This document shows, piece after piece, positions 4,502 through 29,695 of a DNA stretch of 64,000 bases (its first letter is position 1; each line of letters starts with the position of its first letter). Origin of the DNA: Escherichia coli (GTDB taxonomy: Bacteria; Pseudomonadota; Gammaproteobacteria; Enterobacterales; Enterobacteriaceae). A program made the translations under genes and the position numbers. The stretch lies in assembly GCF_044324785.1 (NCBI RefSeq), contig NZ_CP172127.1; one strand, written 5' to 3'. Under the pieces are notes generated by a model that saw only the letters and a program-made list of their open reading frames with translations, was not told the origin of the DNA and did not search any database.

Positions 4502-4586
4502 GTATCAGTCTGCTTCGCAAGACGCCTTGCTTTTCACTTTCTATCAGACAATCTGTGTGAGCACTACAAAGAACGCTTCTTTAAGG

Positions 4587-6128
<1,542 letters not shown>

Positions 6129-7358: not shown

Positions 7359-9147
7359 AGACTGTCTCATAATCTTTGTCGAACAGGTTGGCTATTTTAC
7401 CACGAACTGTCAGGTGAGAGGTGACCGGATACGCAACCGCAAGATCCCACAAGCTCACACCGCCCATTTTAACGGTTTGATAAGGATAAGATGAGTAATC
7501 CTTATCATAGCGAGTGCCTAAATACTGATAAGTAATACCCCAGTCGAAGTCATACAACTGCCAGTCGAGCTGGTATTTCACCTGCTGTTTAGCACGGCGT
7601 AACAACGGCGTGTCGGTAATTGCATTGCGCGCATCGACATAATCATAACTCACAGTATGCGTCAGTGGTCCGGTATCAAAATTGGCGGTCGCCTCGACGC
7701 CCTTAATCCGCGCTTTCCCTTCGTTGTAATATTTCAGGGTGTGATCATCATAATCGATCAAGTCACTGACATCGTTACGATATCCGGAAATACGCCAGTT
7801 CACCCCAGCGGTTAAACCTTCAAACGCGCCTTCCCACTGTTTGCTTTTCTCAGGGTCCAGATTCGGATTTCCGTAGAAACCATACAGTTGTCCAAGATTT
7901 GGTGCCTTATAAGATGTCCCGTAGGAAGCAATGAAGCGATAACCTTCGATTAATTCCCAACCGATGCTGGTTTGCCAGGTTCCATGACGACCAAACTGTG
8001 AGTTATCGTCGCTGCGTGCTGCGCCTTCAAAGGTAAAATCGCCGACTTGTTGCAGCCCGGTCAGATAGATGCCGGTATTACGTTGATCATATCCATCCTC
8101 AACATAACCTGTACCCGGCGTCGTAGTCTGTTTCTGCCAGTCGACACCCGCACCAATACTACCGTGACCAACGATGACATTGTTTGCCCACTGGACGGTG
8201 TACTGCTTCATCTCATCCAGCGTCGCGGACGAATCATAACGACCATAATGGGGATCGTAGTTGTAATCTTTGCTATGGCTATAGCTGGTAATGAGTTGTG
8301 ATTTAATCAGTTCGCCGTTATAGCGCAGCCCGGCGTCCCAACTTTGGCTATAGAGTTTACGGGTATCGAGCAACGGTGAGCCGGGAGAATAATACGCGTC
8401 ATAATTGGTACGGTTATCATAGCCATAGCCGCGCACAAAGCCGCTCCAGGCATCAGTAAAGTTATGCTCCAGCGCGCCATAAAGCGTTTTACTTAAAAAA
8501 CCATCGTTATCTGTCTGCGCTTGCGTTCCGGTATTACCATAGGCAACAACATCATAACCATGAGTATGGGCATAATCGCCCAACAACGTTACTCGTGTCT
8601 TATCCCCCAGTTGTTGCTGCGTAGAGACATCATAGTTCTGATAACTATTGCTTCCCCACCCTGCTGAAATTTCCGTTCCGGGTTCATCGCGCGTCGTGAT
8701 GATATTCACCACCCCGCCTATTGCATCGGAACCATAAACGGCGGAGCGCGGCCCACGGATATATTCAACACGCTGGACAAGCGCAATAGGGAACTGGCTA
8801 AGGTCGGCAGAACCACTCACCCCCGCCAGATTCAGGCGTACGCCATCAATTAACACCAACACATGACTGGCATTTGTACCGCGAATAAAAATAGATGATA
8901 GCTGACCTGAACCGCCGTTTTGGGTGATATCCACGCCCGGAAGACGGCGCAGCACATCATTGACCGAGGTCGACTGCCAGCGGTCGATATCCTGACGCGT
9001 CACAATGGTGGTTGGTGCAAGCACAGTGCTGCGCGGCTGTTCAAAACGGTTAGCAGTAACGACGAGAGTATCCGGGCTGGTATCCTGTGCCCAAGCAGAA
9101 AAGGCTGTGACAGAACACGCCGTCAGCAGCGAAGCTTTTTTAATCAT
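7303..9147 (-). CDS. btuB: TonB-dependent vitamin B12/cobalamin outer membrane transporter BtuB
   Basis: Translation [37 protein letters not shown]... ending ...SGSYTF (TonB-dependent receptor C-terminal Phe); 3' end overlaps murI start by 56 bp. Confidence 0.95.
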
Positions 9148-10655: not shown

Positions 10656-11015
10656 TTACTCAGCAACTTCCTGCTTACGGTTACGCATCTTCGCGCCAAT
10701 CCAGAACACCATAATGACGGACAGTACTGCCGGGAAGAAGTTAGAGCCGATATCCGGATATTCCGCACGAACTACCGTGCTGTACAGCAGTACGCCGAGA
10801 ATAAAACAGGCAGCTGCCAGACCCGGCAAGCCTACCGGCATAGTGCGATTAAGATAACGTTGATGCAGGCAGTAAACCGTCAGCACCAGGGAAATAATCG
10901 GGAATACAGAAAATGGCACAATGGAGCTAAACAGCGCTGCGAAAGTACCATTAATCGATAAGCCAGCCACCAGCGCCAGCAGCAGCGTACCTCTATCTTG
11001 ATTTGCTTGTTTCAT
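10656..11015 (-). CDS. yijD: small inner membrane protein YijD
   Basis: 119 aa, hydrophobic, conserved position downstream of fabR. Confidence 0.85.
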
Positions 11016-11662
11016 TACTCGTCCTTCACATTTCCCGGAATAATTGCGGATTTCTCTTGTTCACGGCGATACCAGTAATAAGCCCCTTTCGAAATCATTC
11101 GCAGTTGCAGTACCAGTCGCTCTTCTAATTGCCGACGTTGTTCGACGCCGACGTCCAACGCCTCGGCACCCGCACTGAAGACAATCGTCACCATGGCTTC
11201 GGCTTGCGCTTCAGTAAACGCACGCGGCATATGGTTTTCGAGTTCCAGATAGTCCGCAAGTTCCGCAATGAAGTGCTGAATTTCACGCGCAACGGCGGCA
11301 CGAAACGCAGCGGAGGTGCCGGAGCGTTCCCGCAATAATAACCGGAAGGCGTTAGGATTATTACCGATGAACTCCATAAATGTGGAGACCGAGGTACGGA
11401 TCACACTCCCGCCTTTGGCGATACGCTGACGCGCCTGGCGCATGAGTTGGCGTAGCATTAAACCGCTCTCATCAACCATGGTCAGACCCAGTTCGTCTAC
11501 GTCGCGGAAATGCCGATAAAAAGAGGTGGGAGCAATGCCCGCTTCACGCGCCACTTCACGCAAACTCAGGCTGGCGAAGCTGCGTTCAGCACTTAATTGG
11601 CTAAATGCGGCTTCCACCAGCGAACGGCGGGTTTTTTCTTTTTGTTGCGCTCTTACGCCCAT
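11015..11662 (-). CDS. fabR: TetR-family repressor of unsaturated fatty acid biosynthesis FabR
   Basis: Translation from [29 protein letters not shown]... with TetR-type HTH; upstream in-frame extension in ORF track rejected. Confidence 0.88.
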
Positions 11663-11996
11663 CACGATGTCTGAATCCTTGCCAAAAGTACTGCTGGCAC
11701 TATACCAGAGAATGAACATACTGGATTGCTCCAGTGTTGTGAATGAACGGTAACGCAATAAAACATATTTACTGCAATTCTTTGGCCGGTTCTTTTACGT
11801 ACAACGGAAACCTGCCGCTTAAACGGAGAGTATCGTCGATAAAAATCCAATAAAACGTTCAGGTCAAAAGTAAGAAACAGACAAAGCAAAGGCCGCTCAC
11901 GCTATAGCCAGATAAATGACGGGGATCAATTGGCTTACCCGCGATAAAATGTTACCATTCTGTTGCTTTTATGTATAAGAACAGGTAAGCCCTACC

Positions 11997-13397
11997 ATGC
12001 CACATTCCTACGATTACGATGCCATAGTAATAGGTTCCGGCCCCGGCGGCGAAGGCGCTGCAATGGGCCTGGTTAAGCAAGGTGCGCGCGTCGCAGTTAT
12101 CGAGCGTTATCAAAATGTTGGCGGCGGTTGCACCCACTGGGGTACCATCCCGTCGAAAGCTCTCCGTCACGCCGTCAGCCGCATTATAGAATTTAATCAA
12201 AACCCACTTTACAGCGACCATTCGCGACTGCTCCGCTCTTCTTTTGCCGATATCCTTAACCATGCCGATAACGTGATTAATCAACAAACGCGCATGCGTC
12301 AGGGATTTTACGAACGTAATCACTGTGAAATATTGCAGGGAAACGCTCGCTTTGTTGACGAGCATACGCTGGCGCTGGATTGCCCGGACGGCAGCGTCGA
12401 AACACTAACCGCTGAAAAATTTGTTATTGCCTGTGGCTCTCGTCCATATCATCCAACAGATGTTGATTTCACCCATCCACGCATTTACGACAGCGACTCA
12501 ATTCTTAGCATGCACCACGAACCGCGCCATGTGCTGATTTACGGTGCTGGAGTGATCGGCTGTGAATATGCGTCGATCTTCCGCGGTATGGATGTAAAAG
12601 TGGATCTGATCAATACCCGCGATCGCCTGCTGGCATTTCTCGATCAAGAGATGTCAGATTCTCTCTCCTATCACTTCTGGAACAGTGGTGTAGTGATTCG
12701 TCACAACGAAGAGTACGAGAAGATCGAAGGCTGTGACGACGGTGTGATCATGCATCTGAAGTCGGGTAAAAAACTGAAAGCTGACTGCCTGCTCTATGCC
12801 AACGGTCGTACCGGTAATACCGATTCGCTGGCGTTACAGAACATTGGGCTGGAAACTGACAGTCGCGGACAGCTGAAGGTCAACAGCATGTATCAGACCG
12901 CACAGCCGCACGTTTACGCGGTGGGCGACGTGATTGGTTATCCGAGCCTGGCGTCGGCGGCCTATGACCAGGGGCGCATTGCCGCGCAGGCGCTGGTGAA
13001 AGGTGAAGCCACCGCTCATCTGATTGAAGATATCCCTACCGGCATTTACACCATCCCGGAAATCAGCTCTGTGGGCAAAACCGAACAGCAGCTGACCGCG
13101 ATGAAAGTGCCATATGAAGTGGGCCGCGCCCAGTTTAAACATCTGGCACGCGCACAAATCGTCGGCATGAACGTGGGCACGCTGAAAATTTTGTTCCATC
13201 GGGAAACGAAAGAGATTCTGGGTATTCACTGCTTTGGTGAGCGCGCTGCCGAAATTATTCATATCGGTCAGGCGATTATGGAACAGAAAGGTGGCGGCAA
13301 CACTATTGAGTACTTCGTCAACACCACCTTTAACTACCCGACGATGGCGGAAGCCTATCGGGTAGCTGCGTTAAACGGTTTAAACCGCCTTTTTTAA
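11997..13397 (+). CDS. sthA: soluble pyridine nucleotide transhydrogenase SthA (UdhA)
   Basis: 466 aa; [24 protein letters not shown] (FAD GxGxxG), pyridine nucleotide-disulfide oxidoreductase family. Confidence 0.93.
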
Positions 13398-14297
13398 CAC
13401 TTTATCGAAATGGCCATCCATTCTTGCGCGGATGGCCTCTGCCAGCTGCTCATAGCGGCTGCGCAGCGGTGAGCCAGGACGATAAACCAGCCCAATAGTG
13501 CGGCGTGGTTCCGGCTTAATGCACGGCAGATAAACAACCCCATCGCGTTTGCGCTCCGGCGGCACAGCCAGCGCTGGCAATAAAGTGATCCCGCTACCTG
13601 CCGCCACCATGTTGCGCAGCGTCTCCAGGCTGGTCGCGCGGAAGTGTGTATCTTCATCTGCCCCGGCTTCAAAGCAGAAACCCATTGCCTGATCGCGCAA
13701 ACAGTGACCGTCTTCCAGCATCAGCAGTTTTTCCCCTGCCAGATCGGCCATCGGTACGCATTCGCGGTTCGCCCACGGGTGATCTTCATAGATAGCCAGC
13801 AACATTGGCTCATCAAACAACGGCACTTCAATGAATGCTTCGCTCTCTTTCACCAGCGCGAGGATCACGCAATCGAGTTTGCCGCTGTCCAGTTGCGCCA
13901 GTAACTGGTGGGTCTGTGCTTCATGCAGATACATTTCCAGCTTTGGAAAGGTCTGGTGCAGCATCGGGATAATATGCGGTAGCAGGTACGGCCCGACCGT
14001 GGGAATCAAACCAATATGCAGCGGCCCGGACATGGTCTCACCCTGCTGGCTTGCCATCTCTTTAAGGACTTTCACCTCACGCAGCACGGTACGCGCCTGA
14101 TCCACCAGCAGCATTCCCGCCTGGGTGAACAACACTTTACGGCTGGTCCGCTCCAGCAACATCACGCCCAGCTCATCTTCCAGCTTACGAATTTGCCCGC
14201 TAAGCGTCGGCTGGCTAACGTGGCAGGAGTCTGCCGCACGCCGAAAATGGCGGTGTTCAGCCAATGCCACCAGGTACTCAAGATCACGAATATTCAT
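13380..14297 (-). CDS. oxyR: LysR-family hydrogen peroxide-responsive regulator OxyR
   Basis: Translation [44 protein letters not shown]...; start at conserved MNIRDL; 3' end overlaps convergent sthA by 18 bp. Confidence 0.95.
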
Positions 14298-14396
14298 TAT
14301 CCATCCTCCATCGCCACGATAGTTCATGGCGATAGGTAGCATAGCAATGAACGATTATCCCTATCAAGCATTCTGACTGATAATTGCTCACAGAAA

Positions 14397-14506
14397 CGGA
14401 GCGGCACCTCTTTTAACCCTTGAAGTCACTGCCCGTTTCGAGAGTTTCTCAACTCGAATAACTAAAGCCAACGTGAACTTTTGCGGATCTCCAGGATCCG
14501 CTTTTT
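14397..14506 (+). ncRNA. oxyS: OxyS small regulatory RNA, divergent from oxyR
   Basis: Sequence GAAACGGAGCGGCACCTCTTTTAACCCTTGAAGTCACTGCCCGTTTCGAGAGTTTCTCAACTCGAATAACTAAAGCCAACGTGAACTTTTGCGGATCTCCAGGATCCGCTTTTTTTT, including the terminator hairpin GCGGATC/GATCCGC and U tract. Confidence 0.93.
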
Positions 14507-14548
14507 TTTATTCTACAGGCCCACAGCAAGAGAGCCTGATAGTAACAG

Positions 14549-15832
14549 TTACTCAATCCGATCTTTGACAATAAAGAAGTAACACAGCGCCCCGGTGAAC
14601 GTCACACAGGCCGCGATAACCAGCGCCAGATTAAACGAGTGCGTGGTATCCACTACCCAACCGGTTACGATCGGAGCAAAGGAAGCAAAAACAAAACTGC
14701 CAAAGTTTTGAATCCCGGCGATGGAAGCCACTTTTGTTTCTGACACCATCACCTGCACCAGTCCCCATGCAGATGTTCCCGCGAAATGCACGCAGAACAG
14801 CGCCATTGAGATAAACGCTACCGCCTGGGCTGGCGAGGAGGATTGCACGACCAGCAACGTGCCTAATGCCGACATCATCAAACCGCAGACAATAGCCGTT
14901 TTACGCGTCTTCGCCAGGTCGTAGCCTTTTTTCGCCAGCCGATCGACAACAATACCGTTAACCCACATCCCAACCGCCGCCGCGAGGAAAGGAATCGCCG
15001 CCACCCAACCGGTTTTCGCCAGACTGAAACCTTGTTCGGCCTGCAAATAACCGGGCAACCACGCGATGTAGAGCCAGCCTGTATAGTTGACGCCAGAGAA
15101 ACCTAAAATCATCCCCCAGGTTGTCCGATGCTTAAACAGCGCCAGCCACTCGCTAAATTGTAATTGTGGACGCGGTTTAACCGGCGCGGAGAGATAGGTC
15201 CGTTCTTCGTCGGTCAGGACAAACTGCGCCCGGTTGCGATACCACGCGTACCAACAGATCCCAACCAGAATCCCCGCCACGCCGATGATGACGAACATTG
15301 CCCGCCAGCCCCATGCCAGCTGCATCAATACAAGAGCAGGAGGCGCAATAGCCTGACCGATAACGGTAGATGAGTTAAAAATCCCCAGCGCCGTGCCGCG
15401 TTCTTTTTGCGCATACCAGTCGGTGATCGACTTTACTCCCGCAGGCATAAATGGCGCTTCGCCAATACTCAAACCAATACGCATTAAAATAAAGTGGCTA
15501 AAAGAATTAACCATTCCTGTTAATGCCTGCATTAATGACCAGAATATTAAGCCTGCGCCTAAAACTATTCGTGGGCCAAAGCGGTCTAGCAAAATACCGG
15601 AAGGGAGTTGTGAAAAACCATAAGACAGAGAAAAGGCAGAAAGCAAAACGCCAAATTCTGTCGCCGATAATCCTAACTCGCCACGAATCGCTTCGCCTGC
15701 CACGCTCAATGACGAACGGTCGAGGAAATTAACGATCCCCGCCATAAATAATAAAACCAGGGTCACTGTCTGAATACGACGAATCCGTTGCGGTTTATTA
15801 CCCGCAACACTGGTTGACACATCAACGTCCAT
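14549..15832 (-). CDS. MFS transporter, anion:cation symporter type (aldonate/hexuronate transporter-like)
   Basis: 427 aa, 12 predicted TM segments, N-terminal motif GIVNFLDRSSLSVAG typical of DgoT/ExuT/GudP-like MFS sugar-acid permeases; immediately downstream of the dehydratase gene. Confidence 0.8.
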   Translation of the reverse strand: MDVDVSTSVAGNKPQRIRRIQTVTLVLLFMAGIVNFLDRSSLSVAGEAIRGELGLSATEFGVLLSAFSLSYGFSQLPSGILLDRFGPRIVLGAGLIFWSLMQALTGMVNSFSHFILMRIGLSIGEAPFMPAGVKSITDWYAQKERGTALGIFNSSTVIGQAIAPPALVLMQLAWGWRAMFVIIGVAGILVGICWYAWYRNRAQFVLTDEERTYLSAPVKPRPQLQFSEWLALFKHRTTWGMILGFSGVNYTGWLYIAWLPGYLQAEQGFSLAKTGWVAAIPFLAAAVGMWVNGIVVDRLAKKGYDLAKTRKTAIVCGLMMSALGTLLVVQSSSPAQAVAFISMALFCVHFAGTSAWGLVQVMVSETKVASIAGIQNFGSFVFASFAPIVTGWVVDTTHSFNLALVIAACVTFTGALCYFFIVKDRIE

Positions 15833-16952
15833 TTTTAGCTCCTTGAGCGGAATTAATCGATTTGATGACTATTCAGAAAATAATTAAGCGAACCGTTATT
15901 ACCAGTTCCACAATGTGCCATCTTCCAGTCGTGCGACGGGGAGATACGCCGGGTCATACGGATATTTCGCCGCCAGTTTCTCATCGAAAGAAATACCCAG
16001 CCCCGGTTCATCGCCTGGGTGCATATAACCTTCATCGAAGCGCCAGCTATGCGGGAAGACTTCAAGCATTTGTTCGGAATAGCCCATGTACTCCTGAACG
16101 CCAAAGTTTGGCACCCAGAGGTCAAAATGCAGCGCCGCCGCATGACAAACAGGCGATAAATCTGAAGGGCCATGCGAACCGGTACGTACCTGATAAAGCG
16201 ATGCAAAATCGGCAATCCGTCGCATCCCGGTAATGCCGCCTGCATGGGTAATCGTCGTGCGAATATAGTCAATCAGCTGCTCTTCGATTAACTGCTTGCA
16301 GTCCCAGATACTGTTAAACACTTCACCGACCGCAATCGGCGTCACAGTATGCTGGCGAATCAGACGAAAACATTCCTGGTTCTCGGCAGGCGTCGGATCT
16401 TCCATCCAGAACAGGCGGTAATCCTCAATGCTCTTCCCAAAGCGCGCCGCTTCGATAGGAGTCAGGCGATGGTGCATGTCATGCAACAGATGTTCGTTAA
16501 AACCGAACTTATTACGCACCGCTTCGAATAACTTCGGCGTAAAATCGAGATACTTTTCTGAAGACCACAACTGCTCTTCTGGCCACAGGCCTTTGGTTGC
16601 CGGTTCATACGCCAGTCCTTTGCCCTTCGCCAGGCCATAAGTGGTTTGCATACCCGGTACACCACACTGCACACGAATCGCCTTAAAGCCCATCTGCTGG
16701 TGCTTTGCATAGTCTTCAAGGACTTCATCAATCGTACGCCCGGTGGTGTGGCAATAAACCATCACGCCTTCACGAGAAGCACCACCAAGCAGTTGATACA
16801 ATGGCATATTTGCCGCTTTTGCTTTGATATCCCACAACGCCATATCAATGGCAGAAATGGCTGACATCGTGACGGGGCCACGTCGCCAGTAAGCACCGGT
16901 GATGCTGCCAACTTACTGATTTAGTGTATGATGGTGTTTTTGAGGTGCTCCA

Positions 16953-17228
16953 GTGGCTTCTGTTTCTATCAGCTGTCCCTCCTGTTCAGCTACTGACGGG
17001 GTGGTGCGTAACGGCAAAAGCACCGCCGGACATCAGCGCTATCTCTGCTCTCACTGCCGTAAAACATGGCAACTGCAGTTCACTTACACCGCTTCTCAAC
17101 CCGGTACGCACCAGAAAATCATTGATATGGCCATGAATGGCGTTGGATGCCGGGCAACTGCCCGCATTATGGGCGTTGGCCTCAACACGATTTTACGTCA
17201 CTTAAAAAACTCAGGCCGCAGTCGGTAA
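16953..17228 (+). CDS. insA: IS1 protein InsA (zinc-finger DNA-binding)
   Basis: 91 aa [43 protein letters not shown]... Confidence 0.95.
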
Positions 17229-17650
17229 CCTCGCGCATACAGCCGGGCAGTGACGTCATCGTCTGCGCGGAAATGGACGAACAGTGGGGCTATGTCGGGG
17301 CTAAATCGCGCCAGCGCTGGCTGTTTTACGCGTATGACAGTCTCCGGAAGACGGTTGTTGCGCACGTATTCGGTGAACGCACTATGGCGACGCTGGGGCG
17401 TCTTATGAGCCTGCTGTCACCCTTTGACGTGGTGATATGGATGACGGATGGCTGGCCGCTGTATGAATCCCGCCTGAAGGGAAAGCTGCACGTAATCAGC
17501 AAGCGATATACGCAGCGAATTGAGCGGCATAACCTGAATCTGAGGCAGCACCTGGCACGGCTGGGACGGAAGTCGCTGTCGTTTTCAAAATCGGTGGAGC
17601 TGCATGACAAAGTCATCGGGCATTATCTGAACATAAAACACTATCAATAA
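17147..17650 (+). CDS. insB: IS1 transposase InsB (expressed as InsAB' by -1 frameshift)
   Basis: 167 aa ...[41 protein letters not shown]... Confidence 0.93.
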
Positions 17651-18261
17651 GTTGGAGTCATTACCGTAAGCACCTTTATAAAAGAATTGCCAGATATCTT
17701 CGATACGGCTGGCATCGCGGCCAATTAATTGTGGACAAAGATGATCTTTCAGATAAGAAGCGACCGACAATTCGCGCCCATTTAACGTGGCATCTCCTAA
17801 TCCACAAAGTCCGCTTTCAGTGGTTATTTTAAGCGTAACGAAATTACGTCCTGGGCAAGTAACAAAAACATCTGCAGCAATAATTTTCATTATTGCAATC
17901 TCCTGTGTTGTAAATAGACGCTTCAAACTTAATTTTACGCCTACTACCATACAAGAGAGAAAGAGCGATTATTCAACCGTGATCACATTAAAAACAAAAA
18001 TTCCCACCGAGGAACAAGAATATCCTCAAATTTCATCCACACTATTAATTACTATTGTTAAAACAACACGTTAAATAATCACATAACAAATTCCTCTAAG
18101 GAAGAGAGTCATAACAATAACAAATGATAATCATATTTTACTTAATTCAATACGTATCGATATGTTTATTTTAAAAAGATTTTTCGGAATGAGAGATGAA
18201 AAGAAGATACACAAACAGGAAGAAATACGATTAATATTGGTCGCGGTAAGGGTAGCCGTTC

Positions 18262-18378
18262 CTCCCTTCCGCAACCCATTAACCCTTGAAGTCACAGTCT
18301 ATTTCAGGCATTTCTCAACTCAAAATAACGAAGGCCAATGTGAACTTTGTGGCTCTCCAGGATCCGCTTTGTTTTCCA
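18262..18378 (+). repeat. diverged partial copy of the oxyS 3' half including a terminator-like hairpin
   Basis: ttaacccttgaagtcac identical to oxyS; the following ~80 nt are about 80 percent identical (tttctcaactcaaaataacgaaggccaatgtgaactttgtggctctccaggatccgctttgtttt versus oxyS tttctcaactcgaataactaaagccaacgtgaacttttgcggatctccaggatccgctttttttt). Confidence 0.8.
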
Positions 18379-19857
18379 TCAAACAACGGAACTCAGCGCA
18401 CTGGCAACCTGTTTAAAGCGAGCAAACCGTCGCCTGAGCATGTGTGCTTTTTCTACATTCGGTTCAAGACGAATCACGTTGAGATGCGTGGCCTTCATGG
18501 CCTGTTTGAATCCAGAATAAGCCCCTCCTCCTACTGCCGCACACATTGCAGCCGCTCTACAACCTGACTGTTCAATATCGACAATTTCAAGAGGCATGTT
18601 GCTGGCATCACAAAACATCTGCATCCAGATTCTGGAATGCGTTGGCCCGCCAGAGAAACGAATCGTTTGCAATGACTTATCAATCTCAATAAGACGGTCC
18701 TGATGCAACAAATGAGAAAAGACAATGCCCTGATAAATCGCGTACACCAAATCTTCTCTTTTATGATGCCCACACAGCCCCAAAAATCCCCCGCTTAATG
18801 CCTCATGGTAATTCGAGCCAAACAACCACGGGAAAAAGAGAATATCATTCTGCTTCTCATACCCTCGTTCCACCCACTCATTAATCACCCGATAGCTGTC
18901 AGGAAGATCCGGTAAAAATTGCTGCAAGAACCATGTCAAATTACTGGCTGATGTAGGGCTTCCCTCATGGGCGAAAAATGTACCTGGAATGCTAAATTTC
19001 CCCCATACATAGGGATAATCAGAAGGAATAATGCGATCAAAGATACGCGTTGCAATTGACCAGGTGCCAGCAACCGCACTTAACGTTGTACTGTCATAGA
19101 TGCCAGAAGTGAGCGCCGCACCAACGACATCAAAAACACCACCAAAAACAGGCGTTCCGGCGAGAAGCCCACATTGGCTGGCTGCTTCAGATGTCACAAC
19201 CCCTGCTAAATCAGCGGAGCCAATAATATCGGGAACCTTACCCGCAACTTCCTTAATCTCAAATAGGCGAAAAAGTTCAGCATCATAAGCACTGGTATAT
19301 TGATTATAAAAATTACTGCCTGAAATATTGGTTTCTTCACAAGCCAGTTTGCCAGTAAGCCGTGAACGTATGTAATCATGAACCATCAAAATGGTTCCGA
19401 TGCGGCCATAATTGTCAGTCTCATGTTTTTTCAACCAATGCAATAGTGCTACAGGGTGCGATGGCCAGAGCTGTTGCAGACTACGGTGATAGCTTTCGCG
19501 GTCAATTCCTTGTTCTTTCCAGCTTGCAACCAGTTGTTGTGCGCGAGAATCAGAGGAAACAATGCCGTATCGTAAGGGCTTACCTTGCCGGTCGAGCAGG
19601 TACAAACCTTTACCATGAGCAGAAAAACTGATGCCATCAATCTGACTCGCAGTAATATTGTTCTCTGACATCGACAGTGAAATGACCTGGCACGTTACCT
19701 TCCATAACGCCTCCATGTCGCGTTCGCAAAAACCAGGACATGGGCTTAACAGAGGTAACACTTGCGAAGAGACACCTATTTCACGTCCTTCTGCCGTATA
19801 AATTCCCGCTTTGGTTTCTGTACCACCTAAATCGACACCAATAAAATACCGCTCCAT
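18379..19857 (-). CDS. FGGY-family carbohydrate kinase (xylulokinase/L-xylulokinase-like)
   Basis: 492 aa; MERYFIGVDLGGTETKAGIYTAEG N-terminal actin-fold kinase motif; last gene of the minus-strand operon. Confidence 0.82.
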   Translation of the reverse strand: MERYFIGVDLGGTETKAGIYTAEGREIGVSSQVLPLLSPCPGFCERDMEALWKVTCQVISLSMSENNITASQIDGISFSAHGKGLYLLDRQGKPLRYGIVSSDSRAQQLVASWKEQGIDRESYHRSLQQLWPSHPVALLHWLKKHETDNYGRIGTILMVHDYIRSRLTGKLACEETNISGSNFYNQYTSAYDAELFRLFEIKEVAGKVPDIIGSADLAGVVTSEAASQCGLLAGTPVFGGVFDVVGAALTSGIYDSTTLSAVAGTWSIATRIFDRIIPSDYPYVWGKFSIPGTFFAHEGSPTSASNLTWFLQQFLPDLPDSYRVINEWVERGYEKQNDILFFPWLFGSNYHEALSGGFLGLCGHHKREDLVYAIYQGIVFSHLLHQDRLIEIDKSLQTIRFSGGPTHSRIWMQMFCDASNMPLEIVDIEQSGCRAAAMCAAVGGGAYSGFKQAMKATHLNVIRLEPNVEKAHMLRRRFARFKQVASALSSVV

Positions 19858-19873
19858 GATCCCTCCTTAGTTT

Positions 19874-20737
19874 CTAAATATTATCCCAGCCGGCAAGGCG
19901 CATTTTCTCTTCAATCCATTGACGTGCATGAATAATTTCTAATAGAGGTTCCGTCGCTTTTTCTGTCCACATTTCTATCAGAAACGTTCCGCGATAATTA
20001 AGATTACGCAGAATCTTAAATAATTTAATAAAATCTACACACCCTTCACCAAAAGGAACGTCACGAAATTGCCCTGGAGAATCAGGCGTTACTGGGTACG
20101 TATCTTTAAGATGGATTGCGGCAATTCGATCAATCCCCTTTACCAGCTCACTTTCCAGTTCATTACCCCATGCGGTCAGATTGCCAACATCCGGATAAAC
20201 GGTAAACCAAGGGGAATTAATTTTTGTATCCAGGACTTTCCATTTACTAATAGAATTAATAAATGGCGTATCCATGATTTCTACAGCACACATAACTTGT
20301 GCCGCTGCGGCCTGTTCAGCTGTCCAGGCCATCGCATCTTCAAACCAGGCGATAGTTTCTTCATTCTGCGGCTCATAATAAACGTCATAGCCTGCCAGTT
20401 GGATTGTTCGAATCCCCAAATCCTGCGCCAGGCGTAACGCCTTCAACATAATCGTACGCGCCTGCTGACGAGTATCTCTATCATGGCTACCAAATGGAAA
20501 ACGCCGGTGAGCAGACAGGCACATTGTCGGAATACGGATCCCCGTTTGCTGAATGGCGCTAATAAGCTCCATACGCTCGGTGAGCGACCAGTCCAGGCGG
20601 GCGAGTCGTTCATCATTCTCATCTACCGACATCTCAACAAAATCAAAACCGCAAGATTTAGCCAGGGCTAGTTTCTCTACCCAACTGGTATTCCTGGGTA
20701 GCGCTTTTTCATAAATACCTAACGGGTGGCGTCGCAT
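19874..20737 (-). CDS. sugar-phosphate 3-epimerase, TIM-barrel (L-xylulose/L-ribulose-5-phosphate 3-epimerase UlaE/SgbU-like)
   Basis: 287 aa; LGIYEKALP...GFDFVEMSVDE.DERLARLDWS...CLSAHRRFPFGS...IQLAGYDVYYE...PDVGNL...FGEG.VDF motifs shared with UlaE/SgbU. Confidence 0.85.
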   Translation of the reverse strand: MRRHPLGIYEKALPRNTSWVEKLALAKSCGFDFVEMSVDENDERLARLDWSLTERMELISAIQQTGIRIPTMCLSAHRRFPFGSHDRDTRQQARTIMLKALRLAQDLGIRTIQLAGYDVYYEPQNEETIAWFEDAMAWTAEQAAAAQVMCAVEIMDTPFINSISKWKVLDTKINSPWFTVYPDVGNLTAWGNELESELVKGIDRIAAIHLKDTYPVTPDSPGQFRDVPFGEGCVDFIKLFKILRNLNYRGTFLIEMWTEKATEPLLEIIHARQWIEEKMRLAGWDNI

Positions 20738-21813
20738 TATTTTCCCTCACGAGTGATCAATTGTTGTTGAAAGATTTTCCGGCTCTTATTCATGTCACGC
20801 TGCAACTGCCATTTTTGTTTGATGAATTTAAATGCCAATGCGGCGATCAATGTGATCCCCCATACCGCCAGATTGAAATGCAAACTAATTCCCAACAGAC
20901 TAAGGCCGGTAGCAATAACCTGAAGCACAAGTAAGGCACAAAAAACATGACTGACTTTACCCGCCCCACCGAATGGATCTGTGCCTCCCAATACAATTGC
21001 AAGAACCGTCAAGAGCAAATAGGAATCGCCATAGCCCATACGCGCCGAATTAAATCGCGCGAGCATAATAAGACCTGCTAATACACACAACATGCTGGAT
21101 ATAGCATATATAGCAATTAATACGCGGTCGGTGCGAATACCGCTAAACCATGTGGCGTTAATATTACTGCCACACATATAAATCGTTTTTCCCGTACGGG
21201 TTTTGCCGAGGAACAGAGCTAAAGCAACGGTGGTGACGATAAAAATCATCATCGGTACTGGGATCCCCATGATAACTTCAGACCCAATACTGCGGACTAC
21301 TGGTGGCATACCACTTAAAGCTGCCCCCTTAGTCAGGTAAATACCGATACCACTAATAATGGTCATGCTACCCAATGTGACCAAAATAGGGTGAGCGCCT
21401 ATATGAGAAATAATTAACCCAGTAATAGCTCCAATGATGATGGCAATAAGCATCGCCCCGACAATAGCCAGGAAGAGCCAAAACAACTGGCTACCTGTAG
21501 ATGCATCTGCGGGTACATATTGAATCAACACCCAGGCCATAAACAGGCTGGTCAGATTCGCAGTACCGATGATTGCCAGATTAAGCCCCCCGCTCAACAT
21601 CGGTATAAACATCGCAAACGTGAGCAACCCAAGCTCTGGCAATTGAAATGCAATGCTCAGAAAAGTATTGTCGGTGAAAAAACGCCCCGGCATTGCCAGA
21701 CTAAATAACACCACCGCAATAAAACATATTGATAATAAGCCTGAACTGGTACCATCTAGTGGAAAAAATATCCGCTTGTTCATTTCGATCCTCCCGTTAG
21801 ACGAAACCAACAT
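20737..21813 (-). CDS. sugar ABC transporter permease (CUT2/RbsC-like)
   Basis: 358 aa, multi-pass membrane protein, in operon with the ATPase and binding protein. Confidence 0.8.
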   Translation of the reverse strand: MLVSSNGRIEMNKRIFFPLDGTSSGLLSICFIAVVLFSLAMPGRFFTDNTFLSIAFQLPELGLLTFAMFIPMLSGGLNLAIIGTANLTSLFMAWVLIQYVPADASTGSQLFWLFLAIVGAMLIAIIIGAITGLIISHIGAHPILVTLGSMTIISGIGIYLTKGAALSGMPPVVRSIGSEVIMGIPVPMMIFIVTTVALALFLGKTRTGKTIYMCGSNINATWFSGIRTDRVLIAIYAISSMLCVLAGLIMLARFNSARMGYGDSYLLLTVLAIVLGGTDPFGGAGKVSHVFCALLVLQVIATGLSLLGISLHFNLAVWGITLIAALAFKFIKQKWQLQRDMNKSRKIFQQQLITREGK

Positions 21814-22789
21814 CAGTTTCTTTACGCTTTTTGTAATGGGTCACACAAATCGCCGAGACAATAACCACCCCAATAACGATATTGACGAAATAACTCGAGA
21901 CACCAATCAAATTAAGGCCGTTTTTAAGAATACCGATAAGAAATACGCCCATAAGCGTACCAATGACCGTACCACGTCCGCCTGATAAACTGGCACCGCC
22001 CAATACCGCTGCAGCCAGCACATCCAACTCTCCGCCAACCAATGCATTCGGCACAACTTCACTCATACGGTAAGCTTGCAGCATTCCACCAATTGCTGCA
22101 GCGGCACCAAGATAACCGTAAGCAAACAGATAAATTAGCGACACCCGAATCCCAATACGTCTTGCTGATTCGGTATTCCCTCCCACGGCATAAAGCTGAC
22201 GCCCAATATGGGTTTTGTTCATTATCACCCACGTCAGAAATGCCATTCCCAGCATAACCACTAACGGTAATCCGATCTGGTAATCTTCTCCGCCAAATTC
22301 AAAACTCAGGAAAGAACGCTGCGTAATCCACCAATCCGGTAAATCGTAAATACTGTGACCATTAGTCAACCACATCAACATACCGAACAGTAACGACTGC
22401 ATACTAATCGTAATGATGATAGAAACGACATTAAGGTAATAAATAAGAATAGCGTTTATCAAACCAAAAATGATGCCAAAAAAAACAGCAAACACCAGGC
22501 AGAAAAATGGATTTGATAGCGTTTCATTAAGCAGTAACGACGCCACAACATATTGCACAACCGAAGCTACTGCTGCAAAAGAGATATCAATTCCGCCAGT
22601 AACCAATACGACAAATAATCCGAGGGCGAAAATACCCGTTACGGCATAACTCTCCGAGAGATCGAGCAAGTTCTGTATTGATAAAAACTCATCGCTCATG
22701 ATGGAAAAAAATACCAGCATGAGAACAATGACCCATCCTAACCAAGCTTCGACTGAACGAGGAAACCGCAGCCGCATAAAGCTAACCAT
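21797..22789 (-). CDS. sugar ABC transporter permease (CUT2/RbsC-like)
   Basis: 330 aa hydrophobic multi-pass protein; overlaps neighbouring genes by a few codons (translational coupling). Confidence 0.8.
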   Translation of the reverse strand: MVSFMRLRFPRSVEAWLGWVIVLMLVFFSIMSDEFLSIQNLLDLSESYAVTGIFALGLFVVLVTGGIDISFAAVASVVQYVVASLLLNETLSNPFFCLVFAVFFGIIFGLINAILIYYLNVVSIIITISMQSLLFGMLMWLTNGHSIYDLPDWWITQRSFLSFEFGGEDYQIGLPLVVMLGMAFLTWVIMNKTHIGRQLYAVGGNTESARRIGIRVSLIYLFAYGYLGAAAAIGGMLQAYRMSEVVPNALVGGELDVLAAAVLGGASLSGGRGTVIGTLMGVFLIGILKNGLNLIGVSSYFVNIVIGVVIVSAICVTHYKKRKETDVGFV

Positions 22790-24299
22790 TAATCACCTCC
22801 GCCAACTGCTGCTCGGTATAATTCGAAGGCAACAGCTCATGAATAATCTTTCCGCGCTTCATATGAAAAATACGATCGCAGTTATAATAAGCTTCTGGTG
22901 CTTCATCAGTAATTAATATCACTGAAATACCCACACCTGAAAGCCGATGAATAAGCTGGTAAATACTATCTTTTGCGCCAATATCTACACCTACCGTTGG
23001 CGCATCCAGAATTAAAACCTTAGGTCGTGTTAAAATCCATTTAGCCAGGACAACCTTTTGTTGATTGCCACCAGATAGCGTTGAAAGTGGATTATTTGGA
23101 TCGGTGACCTTAATATCCAAATCCTGGATCCACTCCTTGACTAAGGTTTCTTTTCGATTTTCATCAATAAACCCCGATGGCGTCTTTAAACGATCCAGAA
23201 TCGAGAGCACCATATTATCGCTGATAGATTGGGGTAATACGGCCCCCAGTGTCAGGCGATCTTCTGAAACATATGCTATTCCCAGTTTTACCGCATGCGT
23301 GTTGTCTTTAATTGTAACGGGCTTACCTTCAAGATAAATATCACCACTATCTGCTCGAGTAATACCGAAAAGACTCAATGCTAATTCGGTTCTCCCCGCA
23401 CCAAGTAAACCACACAATCCCAGAACCTCGCCTTGGTGTAGTTTTAGAGATACATCTTCAAATTGCCCTTTTCTGCATAATTTTTTTAGTTCAAGAACTA
23501 CTTTACCTTCAACGCTATTTGGTAGTTTTTTCTGGTGGACTATAGTTTTTCCGGTCATTAACTCAGTAATATCGCCTGGAGAAAGTTGATTGGCAGCCCA
23601 CGTTCCAATTATCTCTCCATCACGGATGACCGTAATTCGGTCTGAGATTTCCTTAACTTCATCAAGGCGGTGGCTAACAAAAACTACGGTAATATTTTTA
23701 TCGCGTAAGTAATTCACTGTGCGTAGTAATTGATTAACTTCAGTGCGCGTCAATGACGCCGTTGGCTCGTCCATGATGACTAACCGGGCATCGGCAATCA
23801 GAGCCCGGCAAATAGCGACCTGTTGGCGTTGTGCAATCGGCAAATGTTGTACTAACGCATCAGGATCGAGATTGAATTCCAGTTCCTGAATTATTTTCTG
23901 TGATACATCTCGAAGTTGTTTTTTTCTGTGCAGCCCTAAATATCCCTTCAGGTTGTATTCAAAAGCGATATTTTCAGCCACAGAAAGATTTGGGAATAAA
24001 GAAAGATCCTGATATATCACCTGAATACCCAGTTCCCGAGCTTTATCAGGAGAAAGACGAGTCCAGGACTTACCATCTATAATAATTTCACTTCCCGAAT
24101 CAGGAACATAAACACCACACAGCGTTTTGATCAGAGTACTTTTACCACACCCATTCGCACCAGCAAGACAATGAACCTCACCTTTATTTAAGGTAAGATT
24201 GATATTTTTTAGAGCCCTATGGCCACCGAAACTTTTCGTTAGTGACCTTAGCGTCACTAATGGTTGCTCCGCATTCTTCTCTATAATATGAGGCATCAT
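22782..24299 (-). CDS. sugar ABC transporter ATP-binding protein with two fused ABC domains (RbsA/MglA/AraG type)
   Basis: 505 aa; Walker A GANGCGKST in domain 1, second P-loop GLLGAGRTE, ABC signature LSGGNQQK. Confidence 0.88.
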   Translation of the reverse strand: MMPHIIEKNAEQPLVTLRSLTKSFGGHRALKNINLTLNKGEVHCLAGANGCGKSTLIKTLCGVYVPDSGSEIIIDGKSWTRLSPDKARELGIQVIYQDLSLFPNLSVAENIAFEYNLKGYLGLHRKKQLRDVSQKIIQELEFNLDPDALVQHLPIAQRQQVAICRALIADARLVIMDEPTASLTRTEVNQLLRTVNYLRDKNITVVFVSHRLDEVKEISDRITVIRDGEIIGTWAANQLSPGDITELMTGKTIVHQKKLPNSVEGKVVLELKKLCRKGQFEDVSLKLHQGEVLGLCGLLGAGRTELALSLFGITRADSGDIYLEGKPVTIKDNTHAVKLGIAYVSEDRLTLGAVLPQSISDNMVLSILDRLKTPSGFIDENRKETLVKEWIQDLDIKVTDPNNPLSTLSGGNQQKVVLAKWILTRPKVLILDAPTVGVDIGAKDSIYQLIHRLSGVGISVILITDEAPEAYYNCDRIFHMKRGKIIHELLPSNYTEQQLAEVING

Positions 24300-24362
24300 A
24301 ATATTCCTGAATACGACTAAAGGAATTCCGGGTCAAATTTGACCCGGTGATTTACGGTAAAA

Positions 24363-25367
24363 TTACAAGCCTAACTTCACTAAATGTCGTGTATTTTCAA
24401 GATCGAGCTTTTCTGGATTATCACTATAAATAGTGTTGTTATTAACCTTGATCTCGCCCATATCACCGATTTTTACACCGTCTTTAATAGGTTCACCGTT
24501 CATCATTGCCGTCGCAACCTGGACAAAAACCTTACCCGCAATCATAGGGTTTGAAATATATCCCCCATCAATGGCGCCTTTTTCGAGTAGCTTAATTCCC
24601 TGACCTGGAGTGAAGGTTCCAAAAACGCAAATTGCGTCATTTTTCTTCCGCTTATCAATAGCACGCCCCGCACCAATTGGTCCTTGTGAACCAAATGACA
24701 TAATGCCTTTAAGATCTTTATATTTAGACATTAAATCGTTCGTCGTGCGCATTGAATCATCCACCGATTCAGCAACACCAAAACGATCTTCAACCAACGT
24801 CATATTTGGATAATGTTCTTTTTGATAAGCAATCGCGGCATTGGCCCAGTCATTTACCAAAGGCACGGTCAGACTGCCGACAAACATGGCGTATTTACCT
24901 TCTTCGCCCATGCACTTCGCCATATCTTTCATATGATTGGCACCCATTGTCTGGGTATTTAACAACTCAAAATCCCAATCTGCATTTTTTTGATCTGGTG
25001 ATTCGTGGGTAATAACTTTAATACCGGCTTCTTGTGCACGCTTAAGTACAGGTTCAAGAACCTTTGCATCGTTAGGAACAACCCCAATAACATCCACTTT
25101 TCGTGCAATTAAATCTTCAATCGCCCGAACCTGTTCAGCTGGATCTGCCGTTGTAGGGCCGACCTGCCATGCATCAACCCCCAATAGTTTTCCTTCATCT
25201 TTAATGCCTTGTTCCATCACATTAAACCAGGGAATGCCACCGACTTTTACTACTACCCCCATCGTAAAAGGTTTATTCGCTTTTTGTGATGTTACAGTCT
25301 GATCAGCCCATGCAGCAGTGGAAGATAATACGGTAGCAATAAGGCAGGGTAAGATTAATTTTTTCAT
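24363..25367 (-). CDS. periplasmic sugar-binding protein of ABC transporter (RbsB/LsrB-like)
   Basis: 334 aa with N-terminal signal peptide MKKLILPCLIATVLSSTAAWA; first gene of operon. Confidence 0.82.
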   Translation of the reverse strand: MKKLILPCLIATVLSSTAAWADQTVTSQKANKPFTMGVVVKVGGIPWFNVMEQGIKDEGKLLGVDAWQVGPTTADPAEQVRAIEDLIARKVDVIGVVPNDAKVLEPVLKRAQEAGIKVITHESPDQKNADWDFELLNTQTMGANHMKDMAKCMGEEGKYAMFVGSLTVPLVNDWANAAIAYQKEHYPNMTLVEDRFGVAESVDDSMRTTNDLMSKYKDLKGIMSFGSQGPIGAGRAIDKRKKNDAICVFGTFTPGQGIKLLEKGAIDGGYISNPMIAGKVFVQVATAMMNGEPIKDGVKIGDMGEIKVNNNTIYSDNPEKLDLENTRHLVKLGL

Positions 25368-25489
25368 CGTAATTTCCTTAAGAAATAGTTCAGGTGTCAG
25401 GAAAACTCGATATAATATCGACCTGACTATTTATATAATTTATAATCCCTTAGGCATTGATTAATAATTTAGACAATAAATAATGCCTA

Positions 25490-26299
25490 TTATTTATCAA
25501 CCTCCACAATGTTTAATTGTGGAAATTGTGTTCGATACCGAGTATCTGTACAAACATTAGTCACCAGAATATCGATTTCATCCAGCGTGCATATTTTACT
25601 AAATGCATACTGTTCAAACTTACTGGAGTCGACCAGCAATATTTTTTGTCCTGACACCTGAAGCATCACCTGTTTAAGTCTGGCATTAATTTCACTGCCA
25701 TCGCGGACACCATTCCCCAGATTCAACCCCTGGCATGAAAAGAAAAAACTGTTGATTTGAAAATTTCGGATCGCCCCCTCTGCAACCGGGCCATGAAAAT
25801 CATCATGTCGCTCAGAATACTCACCACCGATACCAATAATTCGAACTCGATCACGGCAAGCCAACGCCTGAATTATCCGTAATGAATTTGTAACTACAGT
25901 AACATCTATATCGGGAATTTGACGAGCTAAAAACCAACAAGTACTACTGTTATCCATTAAAATACAATCACCAGGGTGAATAAATTGCAATGCGGCCTTC
26001 GCAATTCTGGCTTTTATATCAGGATTTTCTTCAGTCCGTTTACGGAATGATTCCGCACGATCGATACTATTATCTTGCCACGCATTATCGGCGAGCATAA
26101 CCGGAGCGCTATCAGATGAATCCAGAGCGACCGCGCCACCAAAGCTACGGATTAACTTTTTGTTGCGCTCCAGTACCGTTAAATCCCGACGAATTGTCTC
26201 AGGAGACGCTTTAAATAATCGTGATAATTCTGTTACCTGTACAGCACCTTGTTTTTGTACATGTGCGCATATCATTTTATGGCGCTCTGCCTGCAACAT
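25490..26299 (-). CDS. DeoR-family transcriptional regulator
   Basis: 269 aa; N-terminal HTH (VTELSRLFKASPETIRRDL) and C-terminal DeoR sugar-phosphate-binding domain; upstream of the ABC operon on the same strand. Confidence 0.85.
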   Translation of the reverse strand: MLQAERHKMICAHVQKQGAVQVTELSRLFKASPETIRRDLTVLERNKKLIRSFGGAVALDSSDSAPVMLADNAWQDNSIDRAESFRKRTEENPDIKARIAKAALQFIHPGDCILMDNSSTCWFLARQIPDIDVTVVTNSLRIIQALACRDRVRIIGIGGEYSERHDDFHGPVAEGAIRNFQINSFFFSCQGLNLGNGVRDGSEINARLKQVMLQVSGQKILLVDSSKFEQYAFSKICTLDEIDILVTNVCTDTRYRTQFPQLNIVEVDK

Positions 26300-26752
26300 A
26301 GTATCGGTCCGTTATTATCAAATTAGCATGCTTATATAATTAACTGTTCCCTCATAAAATAAAGTGATAGGAATCAAGATTCATTTTATAAATATAATCG
26401 CAAACAGAAATGGTGATCTTTACCACAAATTAAATTGAGAATATTCTACTATTGGACATTTTTTTGAGATATACGTCACTAAATAAGCTTTATTCTGTCA
26501 CCTGACGAAAAATTTAAATGCAAAAACAAAAATAATCGGGCATAGCAATCTCTTCCATTCATGACCGAATACGCCCGAATAAAACCGTTTACGCCCACTT
26601 ACCCTCTTTCATTGCCTTCTTACATGCCTTGAATATTTTACATTTCTTATATTCAGCGTAATTTAGGCAACATAATTTACGAGCAAAAATAGCCAAAACC
26701 CAAAAGTTAAAGTTTATTTATATAATACATACAGATTATCGTGGAGTTAAAA

Positions 26753-27435
26753 ATGGATACGCTAAAGGAAAAAGTTCTTGCTGCGAATTTATCACTACCC
26801 CTTCATCAGTTAGTGACGTTTACCTGGGGAAATGTTAGCGGTATTGATCGCGAAAAAGGTGTCATGGTTATTAAACCTTCTGGGGTCGAATACAGCCAAA
26901 TGGGCAGGTGGTAGTGGATTTACAAAGTGGTGAAGTTATTGATGGACACAGGAAACCCTCTTCAGACACAGATACTCATCTGGCGCTATACCGTGCTTTC
27001 CCGGATATTGGAGGTATCGTTCATACCCATTCCCGACACGCCACAATATGGGCTCAGGCCGGAAAAGATCTCACGGCCTTTGGGACAACCCATGCAGATT
27101 ATTTCTACGGCACTATCCCCTGTACACGCCCCATGAAGGATGACGAAATTAATGGACAATATGAATATGAAACGGGGCGAGTGATTATTGAAACGTTCAG
27201 GCAACGAGAAATATCTCCCGCTGACATTCCGGCTGTTTTAGTAAACAGTCATGGCCCCTTTGCCTGGGGAACTGATCCCGCGAACGCCGTGCATAACGCC
27301 GTTGTACTTGAAGAAATCGCCTATATGAATCTCTTTACACAACAGCTACACCCCCATCTTACGGCTATTCAACAGCCTCTACTGGATAAGCATTTTTTAC
27401 GCAAGCATGGTGCCAATGCTTATTACGGGCAGTAA
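26753..27435 (+). pseudogene. L-ribulose-5-phosphate 4-epimerase (AraD/SgbE/UlaF-like), frameshifted near codon 50
   Basis: ATG at 26753 with GGAG RBS gives [53 protein letters not shown] then stop at 26912; +1 frame continues [52 protein letters not shown]...HGANAYYGQ, strongly AraD-like. Confidence 0.8.
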
Positions 27436-27484
27436 CCCTCTAAGCATGGCCTGGCGTTTTGCCAGGCCACGAATCGCCCAGGAC

Positions 27485-28858: not shown

Positions 28859-28918
28859 AACTCTGTTTCCTTATTTTGAAATTCAATGCCGGAAAGCTGC
28901 GCCTCCGGCCAACAAAAC

Positions 28919-29695
28919 TTAAGCTAAAATCCGCGTACCCATCGGCATACCGTTAAACAGTGCCGGAAGCTGTTCCGCATGACGCCAGGAGGCGATATCC
29001 ACCGGGCGGCCCAGCGTGCGTGCAGCATCCAGCGCCGCGTTCACTTTCACTATCATGCCGTCAGTAATAATGCCCTGCTCAATCAGTTGTTCTGCTTTCG
29101 CGGCGGTCATTTCGGCAATGCGTTGCCCTTTGCCGTCGAGAATGCCACTGACGTCGGAGAGCAAAATCAGATCCGCGCCCAGCGTTGCCGCCAGCGCCGT
29201 TGCCGCCTGATCGGCATTGACGTTCATCAGTTGCCCTTCGTCTGTTACGCCAATGGAGCTGACCACCGGTAGATAACCGTTCTCCAGCAAGGAGTTGATA
29301 AGCTTAGGCGAACCTGGCTGCGCCAGTCCAACATGGCCTAACTCTTCATCAAGCTGGGTCACTTTGACGCTGTCGCCGTCACCGAGAAACAAACCTACGG
29401 CCGCAATCTGATGTTTCTTCGCCCATGCCAGCAGGGTTTTATTTGCCGTTCCCGCCAGTGCTCCGGTGATAATGTCAATCTGATCAGCAGGCGTCACCCG
29501 CAGGCCGTTTTTCTTTTTCACCGGCAGATTCAGCCCTTTCATCAGCTCATCCACCACGCAACCGCCGCCGTGCACAATCACCAGCGGACGCTGATGTGAC
29601 ACACGATAATTCACCAGTGCACTAAACAGACGTTCCAGCGCCTCTTCACTATCCAGCAGTACGCCGCCCAGTTTGATAATTAATGGATTCATCAT
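28919..29695 (-). CDS. argB: acetylglutamate kinase ArgB
   Basis: Translation from [24 protein letters not shown]...; start chosen at the conserved N-terminus, not the upstream Met in the ORF track. Confidence 0.93.

Follow-up and report, generated by a model that had tools for sequence, protein, structure and literature searches.

A complete IS1 element apparently recently inserted into an accessory manD gene of one Escherichia coli clone

Results

Organization of the manD locus

The window analysed in this study is a 64,000-nucleotide stretch of the E. coli chromosome. It contains, in this order, rrn, btuB with a cobalamin riboswitch, trmA, fabR, sthA, oxyR, OxyS, an MFS transporter gene together with manD, an island of FGGY-kinase, ABC-transporter and DeoR genes, and argH. 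In K-12, argH, oxyS, and oxyR are directly adjacent; hence, the manD-MFS module is accessory. Approximately one third of the complete E. coli genomes (about 1,860 of 5,426) carried manD, and the FGGY island was found in about 146 genomes. The MFS gene (14549..15832, minus strand) is an intact open reading frame of 427 amino acids that resembles D-galactonate transporters (TIGR00893-like, PF07690) and has a G122S allele. It is separated from the manD stop codon by 66 bp and lies on the same strand, and the two genes may be co-transcribed. The AT-rich intergenic region 5′ of manD (17891..18378, minus strand) was presumed to be the promoter region of the pair; no consensus promoter was found between 17891 and 18378 by a simple scan. 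The outer coordinates 15899-17890, which the original prediction had given for its finding, correspond exactly to the manD stop and the manD start.

A complete, 768-bp IS1 element (IS1A-like; 16898..17665, plus strand) was found within manD, with its transposase genes antisense to the host gene. This was the single IS1 copy in the window. The left inverted repeat (IRL, GGTGATGCTGCCAACTTACTGAT; 16898..16920, plus strand) and the right inverted repeat (IRR, GGTAATGACTCCAACTTATTGAT; 17643..17665, plus strand) agree at 18 of 23 positions. A promoter-like site detected by the promoter scan at 16905-16932 on the plus strand is presumably the insA promoter. The insA gene (16953..17228, plus strand) encodes 91 amino acids that match positions 1-81 of NF033558 and the zinc-binding domain of IS1, and the insB′ reading frame, a 167-aa ORF (17147..17650, plus strand), matched NF033558 with 143.7 bits (cut-off 100). 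A −1 shift at the A6C slippery site of the programmed frameshift (17204..17210, plus strand) leads to a 232-aa InsAB′ with no stop. When compared with IS1A of K-12, the element was identical at 766 of 768 nucleotides and shared with it the length of 768 bp, the imperfect 23-bp repeats, insA, insB′, the A6C site leading to the 232-aa InsAB′, and the 9-bp target duplication. It differs from IS1A in two substitutions at IS1 nt 262 and 687, both of which proved silent in a codon check of the InsA and InsAB′ frames. This variant is common in E. coli: among complete genomes, many IS1 copies on chromosomes and plasmids were 100% identical to the element in the window. Because insA, the insB′ frame, the A6C site, and both ends are intact and the element is identical to widespread copies, it looks fully functional and is apparently active.

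Target duplication and the restored reading frame

Both ends of the IS1 were in direct contact with the 9-bp sequence GTAAGCACC: the left copy (16889..16897) abuts the IRL and the right copy (17666..17674) abuts the right end of the element. This sequence occurred exactly twice in the window, each time touching one IS1 end; the probability of a chance match for a given 9-mer is approximately 4e-6. A duplication of 9 bp falls within the 8-9 bp range of the family and is its majority length (PMC10359306). The duplicated nucleotides correspond to codons Gly73-Ala74-Tyr75 of manD, and the insertion point lies between codons 75 and 76.

In-silico excision of positions 16898-17674 (777 bp; IS1 and one repeat) gave a 1215-nt ORF of 404 codons and a stop codon, with no internal stops, in which the sequence at the join reads ...FYKGAY followed by WRRGPV.... 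The original prediction had described an IS1 insertion with a perfect 9-bp duplication in an RspA/ManD-like dehydratase whose two fragments join in frame, and it agrees with the intact element, the repeat on both sides, and the uninterrupted reading frame observed here. It had also proposed to excise 16899-17674 and to read a single ORF of about 400 codons. The expected ORF was obtained with 16898-17674, whereas the range 16899-17674 (776 bp) is one base short and results in a frameshift with many stops. Additional stops or frameshifts, which had been named as signs of a gene decaying before the arrival of IS1, were absent from the restored ORF.

Furthermore, the Logan assembly of the read set SRR31073010 contained a contig 100% identical to window positions 17637-32087 (14,451 bp). 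This contig stops 29 nt into the right end of IS1, directly past manD nt 225, and covers the right junction. The manD::IS1 allele is present in at least one public data set and is recorded in two samples.

Remnants of manD and identity of the restored protein

The insertion leaves two fragments of manD on the minus strand, namely a 5′ fragment with codons 1-75 (17666..17890) and a 3′ fragment with codons 73/76-404 and the stop codon, which includes the left copy of the duplication (15899..16897). Translation from the manD start is predicted to give a chimeric truncated product consisting of ManD residues 1-75 and 26 IS1-encoded residues before a stop (17585..17890, minus strand, inside an ORF at 17585..17950). 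None of the chimeric N-terminal products looked up by exact sequence (101, 121, and 100 aa) was found in the public protein index. The 3′ fragment holds a residual ORF of 322 aa starting at Met83 (15899-16867, minus strand), which includes R147, Y159, D212, H214, E238, and E264. Translation of this ORF is conceivable in principle; a Shine-Dalgarno-like sequence was not evident before its ATG. The 322-aa product was also noted at three other loci (L016, L019, and L025), where it was caused by runs of N in the scaffolds and not by lesions. Since the gene is split into a 75-residue stub and a presumably promoterless 3′ fragment without the first 82 residues and most of the capping domain, the ManD enzyme is, judging from the sequence, inactivated.

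Subsequently, the restored protein was compared with known families. It matched the NCBIfam ManD equivalog NF043051 with 732.8 bits (cut-off 550; residues 1-404 on model positions 1-403). The closest solved structure was E. coli RspA (PDB 4IL2), which aligned end-to-end with 901 bits and about 90% identity, and ManD of Novosphingobium (PDB 2QJJ) also aligned end-to-end with 612 bits. PF02746 (MR_MLE_N) and PF13378 (MR_MLE_C) were detected on the identical intact 404-aa protein of four close relatives described below. The restored protein retains R147, Y159, D212, H214, E238, and E264, which we take to be the Arg-Tyr base dyad, the His acid, and the three carboxylate Mg2+ ligands; these roles reportedly come from the work of Rakus et al. 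in 2007 on the Novosphingobium ManD. The uninterrupted gene is named manD in RefSeq, and the assignment of the host gene to the ManD/RspA-type dehydratases was thus upheld. The protein shares with RspA and the ManD subgroup (4IL2 and 2QJJ) the length of 404 aa, both MR_MLE domains, the base dyad, the acid, and the metal ligands. However, manD is a paralogue separate from rspA (about 80% nucleotide identity), is located at the oxyS-argH locus, and has an MFS transporter gene as its partner instead of rspB. WP_000690934.1, from strain 2015C-3121, is an intact allele common in E. coli, from which the restored protein differed by one conservative residue, D360E.

Distribution of the insertion

Four close relatives (L011-L014) were found by an exact-sequence look-up of the MFS allele in the window. 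All of them had an uninterrupted manD with a single GGTGCTTAC at the insertion site, and their gene did not differ from the in-silico excised gene of the window (0/1215 nt). One of them, L011, has the empty site and is separated from the window by a single nucleotide over 13,284 bp; accordingly, manD was not decaying before IS1 arrived. The manD::IS1 junction was absent from the 5,426 complete E. coli genomes. In a census that covered 240 nt centred on the insertion site, 1,863 of the 1,864 complete genomes carrying manD were uninterrupted. Searches with a degenerate junction pattern gave no match in JGI metagenome contigs or GTDB species representatives. A set of matches reaching 40 bp into the manD flank (H58-H65) was rejected, as these were IS1 copies beside ugd with chance similarity in the flank.

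The original prediction had regarded the insertion as simple, with no later rearrangement, and as relatively recent. The first point was borne out by the uninterrupted, identical manD with a single GGTGCTTAC in the relatives, and the second by the absence of the allele from the complete genomes and the empty site in so close a relative. From these comparisons, the insertion is judged to be recent and specific to one narrow clone.

Other lesions in manD and insertions near the same site

Several other inactivating or nearby lesions were observed. Strain N3 carried the nonsense allele E64* (G190T) of manD, as did four independent metagenome contigs. Because a number of genes in N3 are frameshifted, a sequencing error was considered as the origin of its stop codon; this was ruled out by the occurrence of the same allele in the four contigs. 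A 13-nt deletion in manD was found in L022 and L023. In isolate 23, IS903B is inserted in manD with the duplication GGCCCCGTC at nt 235-243, 10 bp downstream of the site in the window. Strain 1916D18 has an IS1 at approximately nt 36-44 of manD, and in strain 2015C-3121 an IS1 separates manD from the MFS gene.

Two further IS1 insertions were located almost at the site in the window. In GCA_000778895.1 (L024), manD is interrupted by an IS1 in the same orientation with a flank beginning AAAGGTGCTTAC, 3 bp upstream of the site in the window. In strain PM7 (NZ_CP073996.1), rspA is interrupted at the homologous position, 3 bp off and in the same orientation, with the duplication AAAGGTGCT. Both insertions thus share the orientation, the 3-bp distance, and the conserved core TATAAAGGTGCTTACTGGCG with that in the window. 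In contrast, the duplication of the PM7 insertion is AAAGGTGCT and not GGTGCTTAC, the IS1 variants of PM7 and L024 are 3 and 8 nt off, respectively, and the host alleles or genes are different (the manD allele of L024 is 12 nt apart from ours). These differences in IS1 variant, duplication, and host allele or gene indicate independent events.

The core TATAAAGGTGCTTACTGGCG corresponds to nt 209-228 of both manD and rspA. The two genes are 80% identical overall and have this identical 20-nt core here, beside an AT-rich run. Under a uniform-target null, the chance of the coincidence was roughly estimated at 1e-4 to 1e-3, and would be less extreme when a preference for AT-rich sequences is taken into account. 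Indeed, IS1 prefers AT-rich targets (PMC10359306). Independent hits in the same 12-bp spot point to a local IS1 insertion hot spot at the manD/rspA site.

Discussion

We consider it very probable that a complete IS1 was recently inserted into manD of one clone, that the enzyme was lost, that the adjacent MFS gene was probably silenced, and that the site is a preferred one. The target would be the enolase-superfamily D-mannonate dehydratase gene, a paralogue of rspA, in an accessory two-gene module between oxyS and argH. A complete and apparently active IS1 would have transposed into codons 73-75 of manD by an ordinary cut-and-duplicate insertion. The gene was thereby split into the 75-residue stub extended by 26 IS1 residues and a promoterless 3′ fragment. 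The event appears to be recent and confined to one narrow clone, with manD otherwise unchanged since and the near-identical relatives keeping the empty site. The MFS gene, located 66 bp downstream on the same strand with no recognisable promoter of its own, would probably be silenced by the transcriptional polarity of IS1, and the insertion site appears to be a preferred IS1 target.

The loss of manD, or of both manD and the MFS gene, might instead have been positively selected in this clone, which would make the IS1 allele an adaptive knockout and not a neutral event at a mutational hot spot. The several independent inactivating alleles of manD fit such selection, as do three private lesions clustered in the sugar-utilisation island of the clone: manD::IS1, a 10-bp deletion in an araD-like gene, and R21Q in DeoR. 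However, with all but one of the carrier genomes uninterrupted at the site, loss is rare overall, and repeated IS1 hits within 3 bp in a single orientation are the signature of a target preference. We therefore regard selection as unlikely and prefer an insertion governed by the target.

The effect on the MFS gene was considered from the sequence downstream of the element. On the minus strand from IS1 to the MFS start (16897 to 15833), a consensus scan found no sigma-70-like or other promoter-like site, and the hairpin present at the manD stop codon was a weak one. The polarity of IS1, whichever way it is inserted, is classical knowledge from the gal and lac work. Since the scan found no consensus promoter between a polar element and the MFS start, silencing is likely, in line with the original prediction; the 66-bp gap and the shared strand also make it plausible. 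The classical gal and lac insertions are alike in that IS1 lies in the promoter-proximal gene of a two-gene unit on one strand, for which loss of the distal function is expected; they differ in that both the polarity and the co-transcription of manD and the MFS gene are predictions from sequence here. A weak internal or read-through promoter, of a kind that a consensus scan can miss, may serve the MFS gene. Alternatively, the left end of IS1 could drive the MFS gene through an outward or hybrid promoter instead of silencing it. In the outward-reading IRL, TTGGCA lies 8 bp from the tip and comes close to the consensus of a −35 hexamer, and hybrid promoters can reportedly arise from IS1 insertions, as is said of work by Prentki et al. 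in 1986. However, at a spacing of 17 bp, the −10 hexamer would be TGGCGA, a poor match, the scan from the junction to the MFS start found no promoter-like site, and approximately 1 kb of untranslated manD 3′ RNA would be open to Rho. Activation by IS1 is hence very unlikely, and silencing remains the preferred reading.

The G122S substitution in the transporter was also examined as a possible sign of decay after polar silencing, given that 119 of 119 homologues keep Gly122. This was ruled out: the S122 protein was found in 344 blocks of the public index, beside intact manD. Because the S122 allele is widespread next to intact manD, it is an older lineage allele.

It is highly improbable that manD was already a decaying pseudogene and that the insertion was a consequence of lost function. 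ManD-family genes of E. coli have repeatedly been lost in other ways (E64*, the 13-nt deletion, and IS903B), a truncated RspA product was found in 262 blocks of the protein index, and the same clone has a frameshifted araD-like gene 9 kb away, all of which would be in line with prior decay. However, the restored ORF is free of stops and frameshifts, its score clearly exceeds the ManD equivalog cut-off, D360E is its one conservative change against WP_000690934.1 with all six catalytic residues kept, and the identity of all 1215 nt with the intact gene of the close relatives effectively excludes prior decay.

We also considered the IS1 in manD as an assembly artefact, that is, a misplaced repeat copy. 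Multicopy repeats are a classic source of misassembly, and the complete E. coli genomes carrying IS1 had a median of 11 matching places each. However, the perfect 9-bp duplication is what real transposition requires, and the independent SRR31073010 contig has the junction between manD nt 225 and the IRR and ends 29 nt into IS1, as it would at a repeat boundary. Since this right junction speaks against an artefact, we regard misplacement as extremely unlikely. IS1-rich genomes are also rearranged when two IS1 copies recombine, by inversion, deletion, or cointegrate resolution. Such an origin of the structure has a negligible probability, because the relatives, like about 1,863 other genomes, have contiguous flanks (non-adjacent flanks were tested for in the empty-site relatives and not observed), an identical 9-bp repeat is present at either flank, and the order oxyR-oxyS-MFS-manD-FGGY island-argH is the same in strain N3 and L011-L014. 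Taken together, these comparisons favour a simple insertion.

As for the preference for this site, it is possible but rather doubtful that the TATAAAGGTGCTTACTGGCG core of ManD-family genes is a genuine orientation-specific IS1 hot spot. As for a cause, the target GGTGCTTACTG might mimic the two conserved blocks of the IS1 end, namely GGTG at the tip and CTTACTG at nt 15-21, or the AT-rich, IHF-like TATAAAAGAATTG that adjoins the target might be involved.

The inactivation of a gene by an insertion that duplicates 9 bp is a textbook event, and IS1, ManD/RspA, and MFS transporters are all well-known families; the hot spot is the sole mildly novel element. The specific allele is absent from complete RefSeq E. 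coli genomes and already exists in public read data. For annotation, manD should be treated here as an IS1-disrupted pseudogene, with a flag for possible silencing on the adjacent MFS gene, and the junction can be used as a clone-specific PCR marker. Beyond the annotation of this strain, the importance is small. The choice of targets by IS1 could be studied on a compact natural example here, given three independent hits within 3 bp. manD is a non-essential sugar-acid dehydratase gene whose knockout may have no phenotypic consequence. On a small scale, the locus cleanly illustrates the repeated loss of accessory sugar-acid genes of E. coli through differing mutations. If the hot spot is true, IS1 would be expected to knock out the paralogues of the ManD family repeatedly, and in a predictable way, in different lineages of E. 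coli.

IS1 insertions in the conserved core of manD and rspA

Three independent IS1 insertions, all in one orientation and at most 3 bp apart, were found in the conserved core TATAAAGGTGCTTACTGGCG, which is common to the ManD-type dehydratase gene manD and its paralogue rspA. The first interrupts manD of the window (16898-17665) and is preceded by the target duplication GGTGCTTAC at 16889-16897. The second lies in manD of another lineage (L024; GCA_000778895.1, JSKR01000050.1; IS1 at nt 1-760), and the third in rspA of E. coli strain PM7 (L004), where IS1 occupies 4003-4770 with the duplication AAAGGTGCT. Only the IRL-side junction is visible in L024, and we therefore infer that its duplication is also AAAGGTGCT. 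The target GGTGCTTACTG was similar to GGTG and CTTACTG, the two conserved blocks of the IS1 end. The clustering of the three insertions suggests that the manD/rspA core is a hot spot for IS1.

Other insertion sequences were also observed at these loci. In isolate 23 (L010, NZ_OW848980.1), manD carries IS903B at about 3630-4700, and its 9-bp duplication GGCCCCGTC (manD nt 235-243) lies 10 nt downstream of the IS1 duplication of the window. Further IS1 copies were located near codon 13-15 of manD in strain 1916D18 (L001, 5172-5939), in the intergenic spacer between manD and the MFS transporter gene in strain 2015C-3121 (L002, 4005-4772; duplication AGCGAACCG), and in rspB, which adjoins rspA, in AF206 (L005, 3001-3768); the last copy belongs to a divergent variant of IS1 and shows 53 differences.

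Accessory region carrying the interrupted gene

Whereas argH, oxyS, and oxyR are adjacent in K-12, about 13 kb of accessory DNA lies between oxyS and argH in the window strain (from 14393-14502 to 27485). This DNA encodes the MFS-manD pair, an FGGY kinase, sugar-phosphate epimerases, an ABC transporter, and a DeoR regulator. Of the complete E. coli genomes, about 34% carry the manD-MFS pair and about 3% carry the FGGY island. When the window was compared with strain N3, the closest complete genome, a 15-kb segment from fabR to the DeoR regulator (about 11000-26000) showed 8 differences only, whereas divergence in its flanks was 1-3%; for part of btuB (7473-8696), there was no alignment to N3 at all. 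Such a mosaic pattern is typical of recombination, and btuB of the window looks like a divergent allele.

Three private changes, including manD::IS1, fall in this one sugar-utilisation region. Compared with N3, the araD-like L-ribulose-5-phosphate 4-epimerase gene (26753-27435), which belongs to the adjacent FGGY/ABC sugar island, lacks 10 bp at about 26907, and this deletion shifts the frame of the 231-aa ORF; the split gene was also found in the SRR31073010 contig (L026), a read-set assembly of the same clone. The DeoR-family regulator of the island (25490-26299, minus strand) has the substitution R21Q in the HTH region at its N-terminus, and the only other record of the identical protein is a contig from the same clone.

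The MFS transporter has Ser at codon 122 (15469), within the TM4 motif R-I-G-L-G-I-G-E-A, where Gly is invariant in 119/119 homologues. Since the S122 allele is widespread (344 blocks of the public protein index) and is found together with intact manD, it is older than the IS1 insertion.

Point and deletion alleles of manD and rspA

Compared with the restored window gene, manD of N3 (L003/L008) differs by one base, G190T, which creates E64*. This nonsense allele, also found in four metagenome contigs (L017, L018, L020, and L021), is a second, independent manD knockout on the same allele background. In two further contigs (L022, ERZ1744813; L023, ERZ505449), a 13-nt deletion just upstream of the IS1 site (about nt 1400-1420; GAAGAT[ATCTGGCAATTCT]TTTATAAAGG) causes a frameshift in manD.

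Regarding rspA, the public index lists, in 262 blocks, a truncated RspA starting at Met83, and the long rspA contigs (L027-L033) showed assorted nonsense or frameshift alleles that leave N-terminal stubs of 63-89 aa. Like manD, rspA is pseudogenised repeatedly in E. coli.
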